Assembly: GCA_030636025.1 (NCBI GenBank)
Contig: DAOVXQ010000002.1
Location: 10,848 to 74,847 of the forward strand
Length of the DNA: 64,000 bases
Source: an archaeon
GTDB lineage: Archaea > Nanobdellota > Nanobdellia > Pacearchaeales > GW2011-AR1
Direction of reading: 5' to 3'
This document shows positions 4,376-9,890 of this stretch, piece by piece. Numbering within the stretch: position 1 is the first letter of the stretch; the number at the start of each line of letters is the position of its first letter. Under the pieces are notes generated by a model. The model saw only the letters and a program-made list of their open reading frames with translations. It did not search any database and was not told where the DNA came from. The translations under genes were made by a program, and so were the position numbers.

Positions 4376-7339
4376 ATGAAATCAAAATTAGAAATCCCAA
4401 GATATTTTACAGAAGAAGGAAAGACACCTACTGATTCTTTTGACTGGATAAAAAGTAAGGTTGAAATTAAAGATAATTCTGGGAATTCAATTTATTCTGG
4501 AAAAGGATTAAAATTCCCTGATTTTTGGGGAGAACTACCAAGAAAAGTTGTTGCAAGCAAGTATTTTTATAGAGGGGATAGCGAGGATTATGTTGAAAAG
4601 GATTTAAGTAAGTTAGTTAAAAGAGTTACAGAAACAATATCTAATAGTGGGATTAAACAAGGGTATTTCTCTGGAGAAGATGCATCCAGACTTTCTGACG
4701 AAATTTCATATATAGTAATGGACCAAAGATTTGCCTTTAATTCTCCTGTTTGGTTTAATGTAGGATTATTTGAGAATTATGGAATAAAGGAAAAATCAAA
4801 TGGAAATTCATCTCACTGGGCAATTAATGAGCAAGGAAAATTTACTAATGAAATAGATGTTTATGAAAGACCCCAGGCATCTGCATGTTTCATTATGTCT
4901 ATAGATGACGACATGAGAAGCCTTATGAAACATTCTGAAAAAGAAGCAATGTTATTTAAACTTGGTTCTGGAACAGGGACTAATTATGGTTTGTTAAGGG
5001 GAGTTAGAGAACCCTTAAGTGGGGGGGGATATGCAAGTGGACAAACTTCTTTTATGAAAATATTTGATATTATTGCAGGAAGTGTTCAGTCAGGGGGAAA
5101 AACAAGAAGAGCAGCTAAAATGGTTATAGAACCTTGTGACCACCCAGATTTATTTAGATTTATTAATTGGAAAGTAGAAGAAGAAAAAAAAGGCCTTTGG
5201 TTATGTGCTAATCAAAGATGGGGTCCAAAAAGTTCTGGAGATTTAGAAAGTGAAGCATATAAAACTGTCGGGGGTCAAAACGGAAACAATAGCATAAGAG
5301 TAACTGATGAATTTATGGGGGCAGCCTTAAGAGGAGAAGATTGGAATTTATGGTTTATAACCGGGGACAGGTTTGACAATGAAGTAGAAATAGCTTTAGA
5401 AGATTATTCAGATGATAGATATCTTCCAGATAAAAGATTTATTAAAAAATTAACTAACAAGAAAAAAATAATAAATGCAGGAGAAGCTTTAGAACAAATA
5501 GCAAGGGCAGCAGCAGTTACAGGAGACCCTTCTTTACAATATGATAGCACAATAAATAAATGGCATACCTGCCCTAATTCTGGAAGAATAAATGCCAGTA
5601 ATCCTTGTTCTGAATATATGTTCATAGATGATTCTGCCTGCAATCTTGCTTCTCTAAACCTCACAAAATTTAGAGATAAAAACTCAGGAGAGATAATTAA
5701 TATAGATTCTTTAAATCAAGCAGTTAGAAATTCTATTATTGCACAAGATATTATTGTTGATTATGCATCTTATCCTGATAAAAAAATTGCGATAAACTCT
5801 CATTTATTTAGGGCATTAGGGCTAGGGTATACAAATCTCGGGGCATTATTAATGGAGAATGGAATTGCTTATGATTCTGATGAGGGCAGAGCAATTGCCT
5901 CTGCAGTAACTTCCTTGATGACTGCTCAAGCTTATCAAACTTCTGCTGAACTTGCATCTAAGATAGGTGCTTTTGAAGAATTTGAAAAAAACAAGGAGCC
6001 AATGTTAAATGTTTTAAAAATGCATCATGAAGAAATAAAAAAAATTAAAAGAATTAAAGAAGTTAAAGGATTAGAAACAATTATCGATGCTGCAGATAAT
6101 GCCTGGCAGGATGCTATTGAAAAAGGAGAGCAGTATGGATTTAGAAATGCGCAGGTTACTCTTCTTGCACCTACTGGAACAATTGGATTTATGATGGATG
6201 TTGATTGCACAGGAATTGAGCCAATGCCTGCCTTGGTTTATGACAAAGGACTTGCAGGAGGAGGAGAGTTAGAAATGAATATTAAACCTTGTGTTACAAA
6301 AGGATTAGAAACATTAGGATATAAACAAGAGAGATTAGAAGAAATATTAAGTTATGCGAAAGAAAATGGGACTATTGTGGACGCCCCCCATTTAAAGGAA
6401 GAGCACTACAATGTATTTGCTACTGCTTTTGGAGACAATACAATTTGTGTTGATGGGCATTTAAAAATGATGGCTGCAGTCCAACCTTTTTTATCTGGAG
6501 CCATCTCAAAAACAGTTAATCTCCCAAAAGGTGCAACAATACAAGATGTCAGAGATACCTATATCAAAGGTTGGAAACTTGGTTTAAAATCTATAAGTTT
6601 GTATATTGATGGTTCTAAGGGAGTGCAACCACTTAATATAAAAACAAAACAAAACGGAAAAGAATTAAAATGGGGTGAAAAAGTTAAACCTAGAAATCCC
6701 ATGATGCCTTCAGGATTTATAGAAAGACCAGGATGGAATGTTGAGATTGGGAGGAATGGAGTTCATTTAATGGTTGGAGAATATCCTGATAGGTCTCCAA
6801 AAGATTCTCCTGCAGACTTTTTTGTTGAGTTTGGAAGTGCAGGTTCTGAATTTAGTGCAGTTTACACTGACTGGGCAAAAGAAGCATCAAGAAATAGGCA
6901 GAGGGGCATGCCCTTAGATGAATTTATAAAACATAATAAATCATCTTCAGACCCTGTCAACGGTTTTACAGACCATCAATTTATAAAAAGTTGCAAAGGG
7001 ATAAAAGATTTTTTTATAAAATTGATTCAGTTAGAATACTTAGGAGATACAAGTGTTTGCGATGTTCAGCCAACAGATAAGCAATTAAGAGAATTGAGAT
7101 GCAATGTTTTGGCTGATAGAAGGAGAATTCGGCACTATCAGTCAAGAATAGACTTTATTGAATTTGCCATGGAAGACGGAGAATTAACAGAAATTTTTCC
7201 ACTATATGAAGATAAACTAAAATCTGGTGAAATGTCTGTTATGGATATTTTTTGTGTAAATTGCGGAAGTAAAACTGTTCCAAGCGGGGCTAACTGCAGA
7301 AAGTGTCCAAATTGTGGAGATTCTGCAGGTTGCGGTTAA
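4376..7339 (+). CDS. nrdJ: class II (adenosylcobalamin-dependent) ribonucleotide reductase
   Basis: NPCSEYMFIDDSACNLASLNL active-site motif and a C-terminal CxxC...CxxC tail. ATG 4376 is preferred over GTG 4370. Confidence 0.9.
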   Translation: MKSKLEIPRYFTEEGKTPTDSFDWIKSKVEIKDNSGNSIYSGKGLKFPDFWGELPRKVVASKYFYRGDSEDYVEKDLSKLVKRVTETISNSGIKQGYFSGEDASRLSDEISYIVMDQRFAFNSPVWFNVGLFENYGIKEKSNGNSSHWAINEQGKFTNEIDVYERPQASACFIMSIDDDMRSLMKHSEKEAMLFKLGSGTGTNYGLLRGVREPLSGGGYASGQTSFMKIFDIIAGSVQSGGKTRRAAKMVIEPCDHPDLFRFINWKVEEEKKGLWLCANQRWGPKSSGDLESEAYKTVGGQNGNNSIRVTDEFMGAALRGEDWNLWFITGDRFDNEVEIALEDYSDDRYLPDKRFIKKLTNKKKIINAGEALEQIARAAAVTGDPSLQYDSTINKWHTCPNSGRINASNPCSEYMFIDDSACNLASLNLTKFRDKNSGEIINIDSLNQAVRNSIIAQDIIVDYASYPDKKIAINSHLFRALGLGYTNLGALLMENGIAYDSDEGRAIASAVTSLMTAQAYQTSAELASKIGAFEEFEKNKEPMLNVLKMHHEEIKKIKRIKEVKGLETIIDAADNAWQDAIEKGEQYGFRNAQVTLLAPTGTIGFMMDVDCTGIEPMPALVYDKGLAGGGELEMNIKPCVTKGLETLGYKQERLEEILSYAKENGTIVDAPHLKEEHYNVFATAFGDNTICVDGHLKMMAAVQPFLSGAISKTVNLPKGATIQDVRDTYIKGWKLGLKSISLYIDGSKGVQPLNIKTKQNGKELKWGEKVKPRNPMMPSGFIERPGWNVEIGRNGVHLMVGEYPDRSPKDSPADFFVEFGSAGSEFSAVYTDWAKEASRNRQRGMPLDEFIKHNKSSSDPVNGFTDHQFIKSCKGIKDFFIKLIQLEYLGDTSVCDVQPTDKQLRELRCNVLADRRRIRHYQSRIDFIEFAMEDGELTEIFPLYEDKLKSGEMSVMDIFCVNCGSKTVPSGANCRKCPNCGDSAGCG

Positions 7340-7797: not shown

Positions 7798-8790
7798 ATG
7801 ATTAGAAAAAAAGAGTTGGATTTTGGAGATTATGAAACTCCTTCAAGTTTTATTCATATTGATAATCGGGGGACATATGTTCTTGATAAACCTCAACAAG
7901 GGATTAATCCTCAAATTGCAGTTCATGCTAAAACTCTTCCTGAAGCATGGGAATTAGCAATGCTAAGTTGCTGGAATTATGGTGCAAGGGTTGGAACCCA
8001 TTATGATAACACAACAAAAACACCAAAAAGTAAAGAAGGGACTATTTGCATTAAAGTTGAAAATCCTTTTAATGAACCAAGAATTCATAAAAATTTTCCA
8101 GGAGGTCCTGAAGAATTAGAATCATACAGGCAAGAAGTTGTTAAAGGAATTCATAATCCCTGGATTGACCCTAAAGCTGGAAAATGGACTTACACTTATA
8201 ATGAGAGATTAACAGATTATAATCCGAGTGTAGATTTAAATGCAGATAATCGGGGGATGCTGTTAGAAAAAGGGGTTGACCAAATTGAATTAGTTTTAGA
8301 TGATTTAGCAAGAGACATTACAAGCAAAGGGGCTCAGGCAACAACTTGGATGCCGACTGCAGACCCTGGATTAGAAAGTAATCGTCCGTGTTTGCAAAGA
8401 TTATGGTTTAGACCATTAGAACACAAGTTTAACGACGGAGAAGAAGGATATTTATTAAATATGAATAGTCACTGGAGAAGCAGAGATTTAGCTAAAGCAT
8501 GGTTTATGAATGCTTTTGCTATAACTGACTGGCAAAAAAACATAGCTGAAAGATTAGAACAAAAAATTAATAAACGAATTGAAGTCGGAAGTTATACAGA
8601 CATATCTGATTCATTGCATATTTATGGAGATTATTTTGAAGAAACTAAGAATGAATTTGAAAAAATGAACAATCCAGATATGAGTTTAAGGATTTGGAAT
8701 TCTAACCATCCTGCTTTTGAAATAATGACTGAAGAAGCAAAGGAAAAACTCGCTCAAGACCCTGATTGGTATGCAAACGGAAAAGGTTAA
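7798..8790 (+). CDS. thyA: thymidylate synthase, divergent ThyA family (archaeal type)
   Basis: The pattern W.P..DP.....RPC...LWF ... HWRSRDL...W..N.FA...W....A......VG.Y......LHIY parallels the ThyA catalytic core. Confidence 0.7.
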   Translation: MIRKKELDFGDYETPSSFIHIDNRGTYVLDKPQQGINPQIAVHAKTLPEAWELAMLSCWNYGARVGTHYDNTTKTPKSKEGTICIKVENPFNEPRIHKNFPGGPEELESYRQEVVKGIHNPWIDPKAGKWTYTYNERLTDYNPSVDLNADNRGMLLEKGVDQIELVLDDLARDITSKGAQATTWMPTADPGLESNRPCLQRLWFRPLEHKFNDGEEGYLLNMNSHWRSRDLAKAWFMNAFAITDWQKNIAERLEQKINKRIEVGSYTDISDSLHIYGDYFEETKNEFEKMNNPDMSLRIWNSNHPAFEIMTEEAKEKLAQDPDWYANGKG

Positions 8791-8855
8791 TCTTACCAAA
8801 ACTTTTTAAATTAAATATTTCTCATTAATTTATTATTAATTCGATTAATAATTAT

Positions 8856-8943
8856 GGCCCTATAGCTCCCGAGCCTAATTTCAGTAATAGAAAAAATGGT
8901 CTGAAATTAAACTCGCTCGGCTCAGCCAAAGGTTAGAGCACTG
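8856..8943 (+). pseudogene. tRNA-Lys-like 5' half carrying a 52-55 nt hairpin insertion in the D arm
   Basis: 8856-8868 matches tRNA-Lys 9000-9012 at 13/13. AGCCAAAGGTTAGAGCACTG (8924-8943) matches the D loop and stem. The insert pairs CCGAGC/GCTCGG and TAATTTCAG/CTGAAATTA. Confidence 0.45.
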
Positions 8944-8999
8944 TTAGAGTGTTAGAATCTTAAAAGCTATAAGTCAATGAAGACTTAAAAATAAACATC

Positions 9000-9074
9000 G
9001 GCCCTATAGCTCAGCCTGGTTAGAGCACTGGCCTTTTAAGCCAGGTGTCGGGGGTTCAAATCCCCCTGGGGCCA
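9000..9074 (+). tRNA. tRNA-Lys (anticodon UUU at 9035-9037), CCA not encoded
   Basis: Hand-folded cloverleaf. Acceptor GGCCCTA/TGGGGCC, D stem GCTC/GAGC, anticodon stem CTGGC/GCCAG with loop CTTTTAA, T arm GGGGG-TTCAAAT-CCCCC. Confidence 0.9.
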
Positions 9075-9127
9075 TTTATGCCATCAAAGATGGCACTTAA
9101 GTTCTCATATGATTTAGAACACCCGAC

Positions 9128-9211
9128 GTGTCGGGGTGAGTTTTTAGATATTGAACAAAATATATTTAAAAACAATATCTAGGAACGAATTTTTCAAATC
9201 CCCCTGGGGCT
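9128..9211 (+). pseudogene. tRNA-Lys-like 3' half carrying a ~56 nt hairpin insertion in the T arm
   Basis: GTGTCGGGG (9128-9136) and TTCAAATCCCCCTGGGGC (9193-9210, 18/18) match tRNA-Lys. The insert pairs TAGATATTG/CAATATCTA. It has only 4 G where the T stem needs 5. Confidence 0.45.
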
Positions 9212-9287
9212 GATGCAATTTGTTTAAATGAGATGAGATTTAACACAAATTTTAAAAACCTCCTATTATAATAAATGTTAAATTAAT

Positions 9288-9890
9288 ATGAAATTTCAAT
9301 ATAGATTATCGACTAAACAAATACAATCAATTATTTTGATTATTCTTTCATTTATCATTTATTATATATTAAGATTTCATTTTGAGAGCGCAGGTTTAGT
9401 TCTTTTGTATGTTGCATTAATAATGTTTGCATTTGGTGTAACGAATTTATTTGATGAATGTATGAAAAGATATAAAATATTAAGAGCAAAAGATACAGAA
9501 GATTATGATAGTCCAACAGAAGAAATAGTTGCAGATTATTTTAAAAGAAAGAATGTAAAATTCTATCTTCATCCAAAAGTTAAAGTTCCAACAAAAATAT
9601 GGAGATTTAACAATCCTTTTAAGAAAAGAACACTTAAACCTGATTTTTTCCTTCCACAATATAATGCATTTGTTGAGTATTGGGGTAATAATGGGGAAGA
9701 TTATGAAAGAAAAAGAAAACTAAAAGAAAAAGCATATAATGAAAATGATATAGAATTTATATCTCTTTCCAAGAGGGATTTGATTTATAATGGAAAATTA
9801 GATAGGAATAGATTAGATTGGAATTTTACTCAAAAACTACTTGATTTGATTAGAGAAAGAGAAGGAAATAATTTAGAATGGAAAAAATAA
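9288..9890 (+). CDS. membrane-anchored protein with a possible PD-(D/E)xK nuclease-like core
   Basis: N-terminal TM helices. KPDFFLPQYNAFVEYWG resembles the D...E.K core of DUF559/DUF2726-type nucleases. Weak. Confidence 0.3.
   Translation: MKFQYRLSTKQIQSIILIILSFIIYYILRFHFESAGLVLLYVALIMFAFGVTNLFDECMKRYKILRAKDTEDYDSPTEEIVADYFKRKNVKFYLHPKVKVPTKIWRFNNPFKKRTLKPDFFLPQYNAFVEYWGNNGEDYERKRKLKEKAYNENDIEFISLSKRDLIYNGKLDRNRLDWNFTQKLLDLIREREGNNLEWKK

Follow-up and report, generated by a model that had tools for sequence, protein, structure and literature searches.

An intact tRNA-Lys(UUU) gene nested in the probable remains of a degenerate paralogue in a Pacearchaeota-like DPANN archaeon

The stretch of 64,000 nucleotides (nt) analysed here, called the window throughout, carries an intact tRNA-Lys(UUU) gene that is flanked on both sides by partial copies of itself. 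Two segments of the 5' half of a tRNA-Lys lie upstream of the gene, separated by a hairpin insert (X), and two segments of the 3' half lie downstream of it, separated by a second hairpin insert (V). Read together, these segments form an outer copy, located between the gene for a thymidylate-synthase-like (ThyA-like) protein and rpoH, with the intact inner gene in its middle. In the following, the repeats and their capacity to form a tRNA are described, and the locus is compared with its counterparts in other genomes and assemblies, which carry L numbers. The comparison suggests that the outer copy is probably a degenerate paralogue of the gene that it surrounds.

Repeats, hairpins and the intact gene

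All four exact repeats that the first-pass annotation had placed around the gene were recovered. Upstream, 8856–8868 is identical to 9000–9012 of the inner gene (13/13) and 8931–8943 to 9018–9030 (13/13); downstream, 9128–9136 equals 9045–9053 (9/9) and 9193–9210 equals 9055–9072 (18/18). With up to three mismatches allowed, the 18-mer has only two sites in the 64 kb, where 0.05 would be expected, and none of 100 shuffles reaches two; the outcome for the 13-mer was similar. The four repeats are far beyond chance. The sole tRNA recognised is the inner gene at 9000–9074 (ARAGORN; Rfam RF00005, 72.9 bits, E = 5e-14). ARAGORN, proposed earlier as a check, found the inner gene alone between 8700 and 9400 also in intron mode with lowered thresholds, and an Rfam search of 8780–9290 at E ≤ 10 returned the tRNA and chance matches, and nothing else. 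The -i mode of ARAGORN missed known tRNA genes in relatives and was for this reason dropped. Table 1 lists the parts of the locus.

Table 1. Parts of the tRNA-Lys locus, in window coordinates
Feature	Position	Strand	Basis or remark
TATA-like box TTTTTAAA	8803–8810	+	Upstream of outer 5' copy; ancestral promoter position; recurrent tRNA-Lys promoter 8-mer in related loci
Outer 5' copy, tRNA positions 1–13 (acceptor 5' strand and D-stem 5' strand)	8856–8868	+	13/13 identity; plain tRNA start in L014 and L002
Hairpin insert X, in outer D arm	8869–8920	+	Stable fold, z = -3.6; homologous to X of L184
Remainder of outer D arm, CTC and AGCCAAAGGTTAGAGCACTG, positions about 11/14–29, variant D loop	8921–8943	+	8931–8943 identical to inner gene, 13/13
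Spacer Y, remnant of the 5' part of the outer intron and leader of inner gene (putative)	8944–8999	+	Sequence; equivalent in L184
Intact intronless tRNA-Lys(UUU), functional gene	9000–9074	+	ARAGORN, Rfam
Perfect 7-bp hairpin TGCCATC AAA GATGGCA, directly 3' of the tRNA	9079–9095	+	Fold
Putative decayed 3' end of outer canonical intron and dead anticodon-stem 3' strand (GAAC-AC-CCGAC)	9117–9127	+	Comparison with intron-bearing relatives and L108/L184
Variable loop of outer copy with 5' strand of T stem (GTGTCGGGG), lacking one G	9128–9136	+	9/9 identity; G53 missing
Hairpin insert V, in outer T loop	9137–9192	+	Stem of 14–16 bp; homologous to V of L108/L184
Outer 3' copy (T loop with the 3' strands of T stem and acceptor), T in place of C at position 72	9193–9211	+	18/18 identity

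Both inserts are predicted to fold stably. X reaches -15.5 kcal/mol (z = -3.6) with stems of 6 and 9 bp, a 1x5 internal loop and a 16-nt loop; it had been described as a perfectly paired hairpin, and while the hairpin stands, the internal loop shows that the pairing is not perfect. The downstream insert had likewise been called a hairpin, which is borne out: the 3' unit that contains V folds at -23.9 kcal/mol (z = -3.6), and its stem includes two G.U pairs. The 5' flank at 8944–8999, in contrast, folds like shuffled sequence (z = -0.47). This spacer holds an 8-nt duplication (TGTTAGAG/TGTTAGAA) and a small hairpin at 8970–8987. The suggested pairing of the two flanks, 8944–8999 and 9075–9127, with each other (AGAA-T-CTTAA with TTAAGTTCT, and GTGTT with AACAC) exists as complementarity, but the matches are short and AT-rich, and they are absent from the minimum-energy fold of the whole region. 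No further copies of X or V occur in the 64-kb window, and on this basis a reading of the two as a high-copy miniature inverted-repeat transposable element or repetitive extragenic palindrome was rejected. A C/D box or K-turn was rejected by eye for X, V and the hairpin module of L164/L171 described below, as there is neither an RUGAUGA/CUGA pair nor a fitting geometry.

The outer copy is not a working tRNA. Positions 30–43 have no counterpart and the anticodon arm is absent, as had been annotated; the five bases before GTGTC read CCGAC and not GCCAG; and the T stem has four G before the T loop instead of five, also as annotated, G53 being the missing one. The D loop reads AGCCAAAGG, compared with AGCCTGG in the inner gene. 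In L184, a relative with the same arrangement, the outer T loop reads AAAATC and lacks TTC, so that T54–C56 are missing. A strict hBHBh' scan for bulge-helix-bulge (BHB) motifs over 8840–9230 gave 91 loose motifs, none of which would splice X, V or the middle segment at tRNA-like junctions. A relaxed scan (helix of 3–5 bp, bulges of 2–4 nt, any cut within the bulge) found nothing for X or the middle segment, and for V only a weak bulge-helix-loop that lacks the inner helix. Because the same scanner detects the canonical BHB at the 37/38 site in the tRNA-Lys genes of five of eight intron-containing relatives, these negative results are meaningful.

In silico splicing leads to the same picture. 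When all three intron boundaries were varied and the resulting 43,645 versions were scored by ARAGORN, 254 (0.6%) gave weak, over-long Met- or Asn-like calls and none was called Lys. No CUU or UUU anticodon-arm piece for the outer copy is present in the 64 kb, and complementary GC-rich guide flanks of the split-tRNA type are absent around the outer pieces. An interpretation of the outer copy as tRNA-Lys(CUU) by way of TCTTAA at 8957–8962 was rejected since no stem flanks this sequence. Among the readings offered by the first-pass annotation, that of a split or multi-intron tRNA finds no support in the BHB searches and splicing trials. The one it favoured, a pseudogene in the form of a dead outer gene round a live copy, agrees with the missing anticodon arm and G53, the lack of a usable BHB, and the failure to assemble any tRNA-Lys.

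The nested arrangement in related loci

The arrangement is unusual, as had been annotated. It recurs as the 5' unit in L174 and as the whole nest in L108 and L184. L174, from the public sequencing run SRR32546281, encodes a ThyA-like protein 96% identical to that of the window, and has in common with it the promoter, the outer 5' copy, X, the D-arm remainder and the spacer, up to the start of the inner gene. The stems of X are unchanged between the two, and three changes in X are located in its loop. Around tRNA position 28, the window has GAGCACTG in the outer copy and GAGCACTGG in the inner gene; the corresponding sequences of L174 are GAGCACCA and GAGCACC. Outer and inner copies are consequently T/T in the window and C/C in L174, which means that position 28 has changed in both copies together between very close relatives.

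L108 and L184, which represent one species, are more distant, with an RpoB N-terminus 78% identical to that of the window. X can be recognised by its loop end and 3' arm (AATTGGTCAAGATGTAAATACTCGG followed by CTCAG, matched with AAATGGTCTGAAATTAAACTCGCTCGG followed by CTCAG), and V by TGAGTTTTTAGAT...ATCTGGAAACGAAT as compared with TGAGTTTTTAGAT...ATCTAGGAACGAAT; the segment before GTGTC is homologous as well (segments X, V and Z). For the 3' unit, RNAalifold predicts 23 pairs, of which three have changed on both sides (two of them in the V stem), two have changed on one side through G.U, and none is broken. X shows three compensatory pairs between the window and L184, in an alignment that is rougher than that of the 3' unit. 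Neighbour-joining of the RpoB N-terminus does not place the window and L108 as sisters; plain-gene lineages stand between them. The plain gene is also found in L014, whose ThyA-like protein (75% identical) is the most similar after L174 among contigs that reach the tRNA locus. Judging from these comparisons, the nested arrangement is old and shared by distant lineages.

The relatives also provide a clue to what the outer copy once was. In at least 17 related lineages, motif scanning and reading showed the tRNA-Lys(UUU) gene to be interrupted at the canonical 37/38 site; many tRNA-Lys genes here were missed by ARAGORN because they bear this intron. The intron ends in GAAG(A/U)A, followed by A-GCCAG; pairing of the GAAG with CUUU of the anticodon loop produces a textbook BHB. 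The outer copy of L108/L184 retains CACTGGCCTTTTA up to position 37 and continues into an intron-like start. At the 3' junction, the window has GAAC-AC-CCGAC-GTGTC and L184 GAAC-TA-GCGAT-GTGTC, as compared with GAAG-AA-A-GCCAG-GTGTC in a live gene, and the anticodon-stem 3' strand is degenerate in the window and L108/L184 lineages alike. The outer copy has the appearance of a tRNA-Lys(UUU) gene of this canonical-intron type that decayed, with the live gene residing in its former intron. Since the two lineages have several defects in common (GAAG to GAAC, loss of A38, and C41 to G), the outer copy was probably dead already in their common ancestor.

How the live gene may have come to lie there is best seen in L184, where about 70 nt of promoter and leader (a TATA box and two leader hairpins) are 100% identical before the outer copy and before the inner gene. 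The spacer equivalent to Y accordingly contains the intron start, and then the duplicated promoter and leader. In L184, the inner gene was thus duplicated along with its promoter and leader. As a promoter is not transcribed, this points to copying at the DNA level from the same locus, and neither to a retro-copy nor to a foreign element as carrier. Of the earlier proposal that a dead tRNA gene was disrupted by a replacement copy, the dead outer gene is supported, and L184 speaks for local duplication rather than for a foreign replacement copy or a simple integration scar.

Several other relatives contain comparable local duplications, at various stages. L145 has a 37-nt tandem repeat of leader and tRNA positions 1–6 (about 1901–1991), L148 a 22-nt repeat of leader and positions 1–14, and L103 a repeat of leader and positions 1–9. 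In L139 (1274–1578), two near-identical tandem units of 141 nt (leader, tRNA positions 1–14 and a further 104 nt) precede the tRNA-Lys. A 40-nt unit of TATA box and positions 1–10 is present in three copies in L008 (3093–3183) and two in L009 (3093–3143), from the same population, where the difference in copy number could be real variation or an assembly effect. The intron-containing tRNA-Lys of L168 is normal but for a 19-nt tandem duplication within it (GGAAGAAATCCAGGTGTCG, twice; about 2618–2655), which creates two possible 3' splice sites.

The promoters of the clade follow a narrow pattern. In at least 11 plain or intron-only genes, an exact TTTTTAAA or TTTATAAA ends 21–25 nt (mode 23) before tRNA +1 (L094, L118, L122, L128, L141, L147, L153, L156, L160, L164 and L172). 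Such a fixed spacing is what leaderless tRNA transcription, known from Nanoarchaeum equitans, would need. In seven lineages with a 5' unit (L006, L149, L152, L158, L159, L162 and L171), the TATA box is located 23–24 nt before the 5' copy, and none is found within 70 nt before the full gene. The box ends 45 nt before the outer copy in the window, 45–59 nt in the window subclade, and 49 nt before the plain gene of L014; no exact TATA 8-mer occurs within 70 nt of the inner gene of the window. Because the TATA box precedes the 5' copy, this copy marks the ancestral gene start, and we infer that the live gene is transcribed behind the 5' unit as a leader. The tRNA-Lys(UUU) anticodon loop itself resembles the TATA consensus of the clade, and in L152 (672–680) an outer anticodon-loop remnant, CTTTTAAAT, lies 22–23 nt before the full gene, exactly at the expected TATA site.

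Partial copies are widespread. The sample comprised about 80 related loci. Of about 45 distinct lineages with a recognisable tRNA-Lys at the locus, about 15 have partial copies within a few hundred bases of the tRNA-Lys. The window and L184 have both 5' and 3' units; 5' units are further present in L103, L152, L158, L006, L148, L149, L171, L159, L162, L139 and L008, and 3' units in L154, L131, L115, L110, L166, L143 and L164. Among 12 listed 5' copies, 11 are identical to the first 12 nt of their own gene, lineage-specific starts included (window, GGCCCTATAGCT; L148, GGATTCATAGCT; L162; L171). The identity ends at position 10 in L008, and the copy of L184, read directly and outside the 12, has two differences. 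The 3' copies match their own gene over 11–25 nt. These own-gene matches, together with position 28 and the 70-nt tract of L184, point to ongoing recombination between the repeats. The functional genes of more than 40 related loci never carry inserts of the X or V type.

The units themselves differ considerably in sequence. The 5' units of eight lineages aligned poorly in MAFFT, with only a loose family resemblance, and blastn of the flanks across loci returned little beyond promoters and coding ends, except for a 23-nt hairpin module, CAAGGGATGACCTCTTCGAGGCC. This module is identical in two species, at the D-arm position of the 5' unit in L171 (117–139) and at the T-loop position of the 3' unit in L164 (2314–2336); in L149 the module has diverged, with a compensatory change in its stem. 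A match of TGAGTTTTTAGA in L138 was discarded as a chance occurrence within a coding region. Every lineage with a 3' unit has a perfect hairpin of 7–10 bp located 1–4 nt 3' of the intact tRNA; that of the window (Table 1) has counterparts in the same place in L154, L143, L131, L115, L110 and L166. Plain tRNA-Lys genes have a T-run directly 3', and V contains a T5 run. Another type of tRNA is involved in L167, where a class II-like tRNA at 6386–6469 is preceded by a partial copy (6295–6330) with two exact segments, one of 10 nt and one of 11 nt; in these archaea, tRNA genes other than tRNA-Lys may have flanking self-copies as well.

With respect to the gene neighbourhood, the window (32% G+C) encodes around the tRNA locus a class II ribonucleotide reductase, a thioredoxin, the ThyA-like protein, RpoH, an unsplit RpoB, RpoA, S7 and EF-2. 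The closest relatives of the flanking proteins come from metagenome-assembled genomes (MAGs) labelled Pacearchaeota, Woesearchaeota or Nanoarchaeota, and on this evidence the host is a Pacearchaeota-like DPANN archaeon. The order ribonucleotide reductase, thioredoxin, ThyA-like protein, tRNA-Lys(UUU), rpoH and rpoB is common to many relatives. Next after DPANN, the best relatives of the 330-residue ThyA-like protein (7798–8790) are found in Planctomycetota MAGs (Sedimentisphaerales and Phycisphaerae, about 57% identity), which suggests a possible inter-domain transfer. A metagenome scan with the ThyA-like alignment returned mainly bacterial (Planctomycetota-like) loci, mostly of 42–63% G+C, and four useful DPANN loci.

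The gap between tRNA-Lys and rpoH is a hot spot whose cargo differs by lineage. It contains a 200-residue membrane protein (ORF200) in the window (9288–9890), hicAB in L002 (5187–5619), a NUDIX hydrolase in L011 (4284–4694) and a polysaccharide deacetylase in L108 (459–1286). The hicAB genes of L002 are situated between the tRNA-Lys and a decayed 3' fragment. ORF200 homologues failed as a route to close relatives, as those in other genomes lie at different places, away from any tRNA. Neither an integrase nor another mobile-element gene was found within about 10 kb of the locus, and the spacers between the repeats (131 and 120 nt) contain no open reading frame of 60 or more amino acids.

Explanations for the outer copy

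Taken together, the comparisons make it probable that the outer copy is a degenerate paralogue in which gene conversion has preserved partial identity with the live gene. An older tRNA-Lys(UUU) gene with an intron at 37/38 would have decayed in the ancestral position, with a live intronless copy established inside the former intron. This copy would have arisen by a segmental duplication at the DNA level, or by insertion of the gene into its own intron, and would represent neither a retro-copy nor a designed split gene; aberrant repair or recombination that involved alleles with and without the intron could have led there. The outer copy, by then redundant, would have lost its anticodon arm and gained palindromic hairpins, X in the D arm and V in the T loop. 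Gene conversion or unequal crossing-over between the direct repeats would keep patches of the outer copy matched to the live gene; by removing the extra DNA, such recombination can also return the locus to a plain gene, which may account for the patchy distribution. Transcription probably runs through the outer 5' part, which would serve as leader of the live tRNA and be cut off in 5' processing.

A number of observations fit this explanation less well. The fragments persist in very small, compact genomes over deep divergence, and gene conversion over patches of just 9–18 nt is unusual. Between the stop codon and the inner gene (209 nt), the window and L174 differ by seven substitutions and one indel (3.3–3.8%), whereas 13 of 98 four-fold sites of the adjacent gene differ (13.3%), although this is a small sample. 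The compensatory stems and G.U pairs of X and V fit RNA selection better than neutral decay, even if DNA-level correction of quasi-palindromes could mimic compensatory stem change. Furthermore, the exact repeats of the window stop short of leader sequence, and a flanking duplication is seen in relatives only, so that the duplication mechanism proposed for the window depends on its homology with L184. Strictly neutral evolution of a dead copy is not what the low divergence, compensated stems and own-gene identity suggest; these features would reflect either gene conversion in combination with palindrome correction, or an acquired role as structured leader and trailer.

The second of these possibilities would share the origin outlined above, with the fragments now selected as structured leader and trailer of the pre-tRNA-Lys: a tRNA-mimicking bracket that includes X, V and the post-tRNA hairpin, and serves in processing, stability, termination or regulation. 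This appears unlikely, but several observations speak for it. The arrangement is kept in non-sister lineages with streamlined genomes, the 3' unit and X show compensatory changes with no broken pairs in the 3' unit, the G.U pairs are on the transcribed strand, and change is slower than at four-fold sites. In the seven lineages where the only canonical promoter precedes the 5' copy, the unit must belong to the tRNA transcript, and the perfect post-tRNA hairpin accompanies every 3' unit. Such a role is more difficult to reconcile with the independent occurrence of 5' and 3' units, their absence from many close relatives (L014, L094, L011 and others), and the great differences in sequence and length of the units between lineages. 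In L184, the outer 5' copy has already diverged and the T loop lacks TTC. Oligo-T is a termination signal for archaeal transcription, and the T5 run of V could end transcription before the unit is complete; nor did Rfam or the strict and relaxed BHB scans reveal any known processing motif. A more far-reaching version, which we consider doubtful, would regard the self-copies as a lineage-wide selected tRNA-mimicking shell of Pacearchaeota-like DPANN, matched to the gene by recombination. The shell would consist of a 5' acceptor/D mimic, a 3' T/acceptor mimic and conserved hairpins, and would govern precursor start, processing, termination or protection; a processing bracket, or a decoy for integrases or nucleases that target tRNA, would be examples.

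A further explanation, also rather unlikely, is that the partial copies are attachment-site (att) scars of small integrative elements that targeted the ends of tRNA-Lys, with the element shrunk to 50–250 nt. Scars of such an element were among the earlier suggestions, and integration into tRNA 5' and 3' ends is a known source of fragments in archaea (PMC3293823, PMC9897764). The exact 13-nt and 18-nt direct repeats of the tRNA ends stand in support of this, as do the similar repeats in about 15 related lineages. An ancestral promoter before the outer 5' copy and ancestral-looking T-runs after outer 3' copies are what attL and attR predict. The lineage-specific cargo in the gap between tRNA-Lys and rpoH (such as hicAB in L002) and the identical 23-nt module in the 5' unit of L171 and the 3' unit of L164 agree with it as well. 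The suggestion is weakened by the local duplication in L184 and by the absence of any integrase or element gene between the short-spaced repeats or within about 10 kb. Moreover, the tRNA-like sequence continues past the exact repeats as one collinear interrupted gene with apparent intron remnants, the repeat takes in host promoter or leader sequence in L184, L145, L139, L148 and L008/L009, the length of the exact repeats varies from 10 to 25 nt, and X and V have no other copies in the window.

It is highly improbable that the outer copy is a working multi-intron or split tRNA, from which X, the middle segment (with the inner tRNA as passenger) and V are cut by a broad-specificity endonuclease, or to which an anticodon piece is joined from elsewhere. 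Non-canonical tRNA introns occur at D-arm and T-loop positions in other archaea, and X and V are found at such positions; the exon-like patches are exactly conserved. In DPANN, L3-loop endonucleases accompany disrupted tRNA genes, and the set of tRNAs is frequently incomplete (PMC5829648). Against this stand the missing anticodon arm with no CUU or UUU piece in the 64 kb, the BHB fit (none for X, a weak helix-loop for V), the loss of G53 in the window and of T54–C56 in L184, the mutated anticodon-stem 3' strand in both lineages, and the more than 40 related loci whose functional genes are free of such inserts. A functional split tRNA is unlikely enough to be close to refuted.

Equally hard to sustain is the idea that the true first exon is formed by the outer 13 nt, in a leaderless, RNase P-independent transcript where everything up to inner position 13 is a D-arm intron and the inner 5' end a pseudo-copy: the TATA box that ends 23 nt before +1 in many relatives is as expected for leaderless tRNA transcripts, seven lineages have a TATA box before the 5' copy and none of its own before the full gene, and outer and inner positions 1–13 are identical, so that either route gives the same tRNA, but the box of the window lies 45 nt upstream, which makes a leader and 5' processing necessary anyway, no credible BHB links outer position k to inner k+1 (chance-level motifs with 2-nt bulges and 3–4 bp only), L184 has a long structured leader before both copies, and surveyed archaeal genomes, DPANN included, encode RNase P proteins (PMC6380272).

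Relation to known tRNA gene arrangements

Elements that integrate at archaeal tRNA genes leave fragments of these genes behind and can introduce introns (Sugahara et al. 2012, PMC3293823; van der Gulik et al. 2023, PMC9897764). As in these cases, the locus has exact repeats of tRNA ends beside an intact gene, a 5' fragment upstream, a link between fragments and intron gain, and a hot spot of variable cargo. Unlike those fragments, which enclose elements of 2–23 kb, the repeats here are separated by 120–131 nt with no recombinase; they make up one collinear interrupted gene round a live one, they include promoter and leader in relatives, and they are common to distant lineages and appear to change in concert with the gene.

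The positions of the inserts (D arm, after 37, T loop) are reminiscent of archaeal tRNA genes with BHB introns, such as the multi-intron genes of Thermoproteales and the disrupted genes of DPANN (PMC5829648, PMC4090602). True BHB introns at 37/38 are present in relatives at the same locus, and the module found at differing positions in L171 and L164 recalls intron transposition. In contrast to such introns, X and V have no BHB, are confined to non-functional copies, and do not give a cloverleaf upon removal.

Split and tri-split tRNA genes are known in Nanoarchaeum equitans and Caldivirga maquilingensis. They are also cited in a preprint (10.64898/2026.05.13.725050). Similarities with the present locus are the DPANN host, the involvement of tRNA-Lys, and the separate 5' and 3' pieces that resemble another isoacceptor gene. 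Here, however, the pieces lie in cis round a complete gene, without GC-rich guides or an anticodon piece, and with defective core nucleotides.

In the duplication-degeneration model for the permuted tRNA genes of Cyanidioschyzon merolae, a tandem duplication is followed by loss of the outer halves. Local duplication and complementary loss of parts are common to that model and this clade, where relatives show tandem 5' units, internal duplications and 3' units. The pattern of loss is reversed, however: the middle copy here is whole, the outer halves decay, and no new functional form of the gene results. Points that go beyond the first-pass annotation are the canonical-intron origin, the nesting in a former intron, the age of the arrangement, the concerted change, and the recurrence across the clade.

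Most proposals on how archaeal tRNA genes come to be interrupted, split or permuted (integration, intron transposition, duplication and loss) rest on end states. The present locus and its roughly 80 related loci offer many intermediate states of one gene in one clade: plain, with the canonical intron, with internal tandem duplication, with promoter-bearing tandem 5' units, with 3' units, and with a live gene apparently nested in the intron of a dead paralogue. This makes the clade a concrete system in which duplication-degeneration can be set against integration models. The fragments can also lead tRNA annotation astray in DPANN genomes, whose tRNA sets are frequently described as incomplete. 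Should the outer pieces prove to be a functional leader and trailer, they would constitute a new kind of tRNA precursor architecture.

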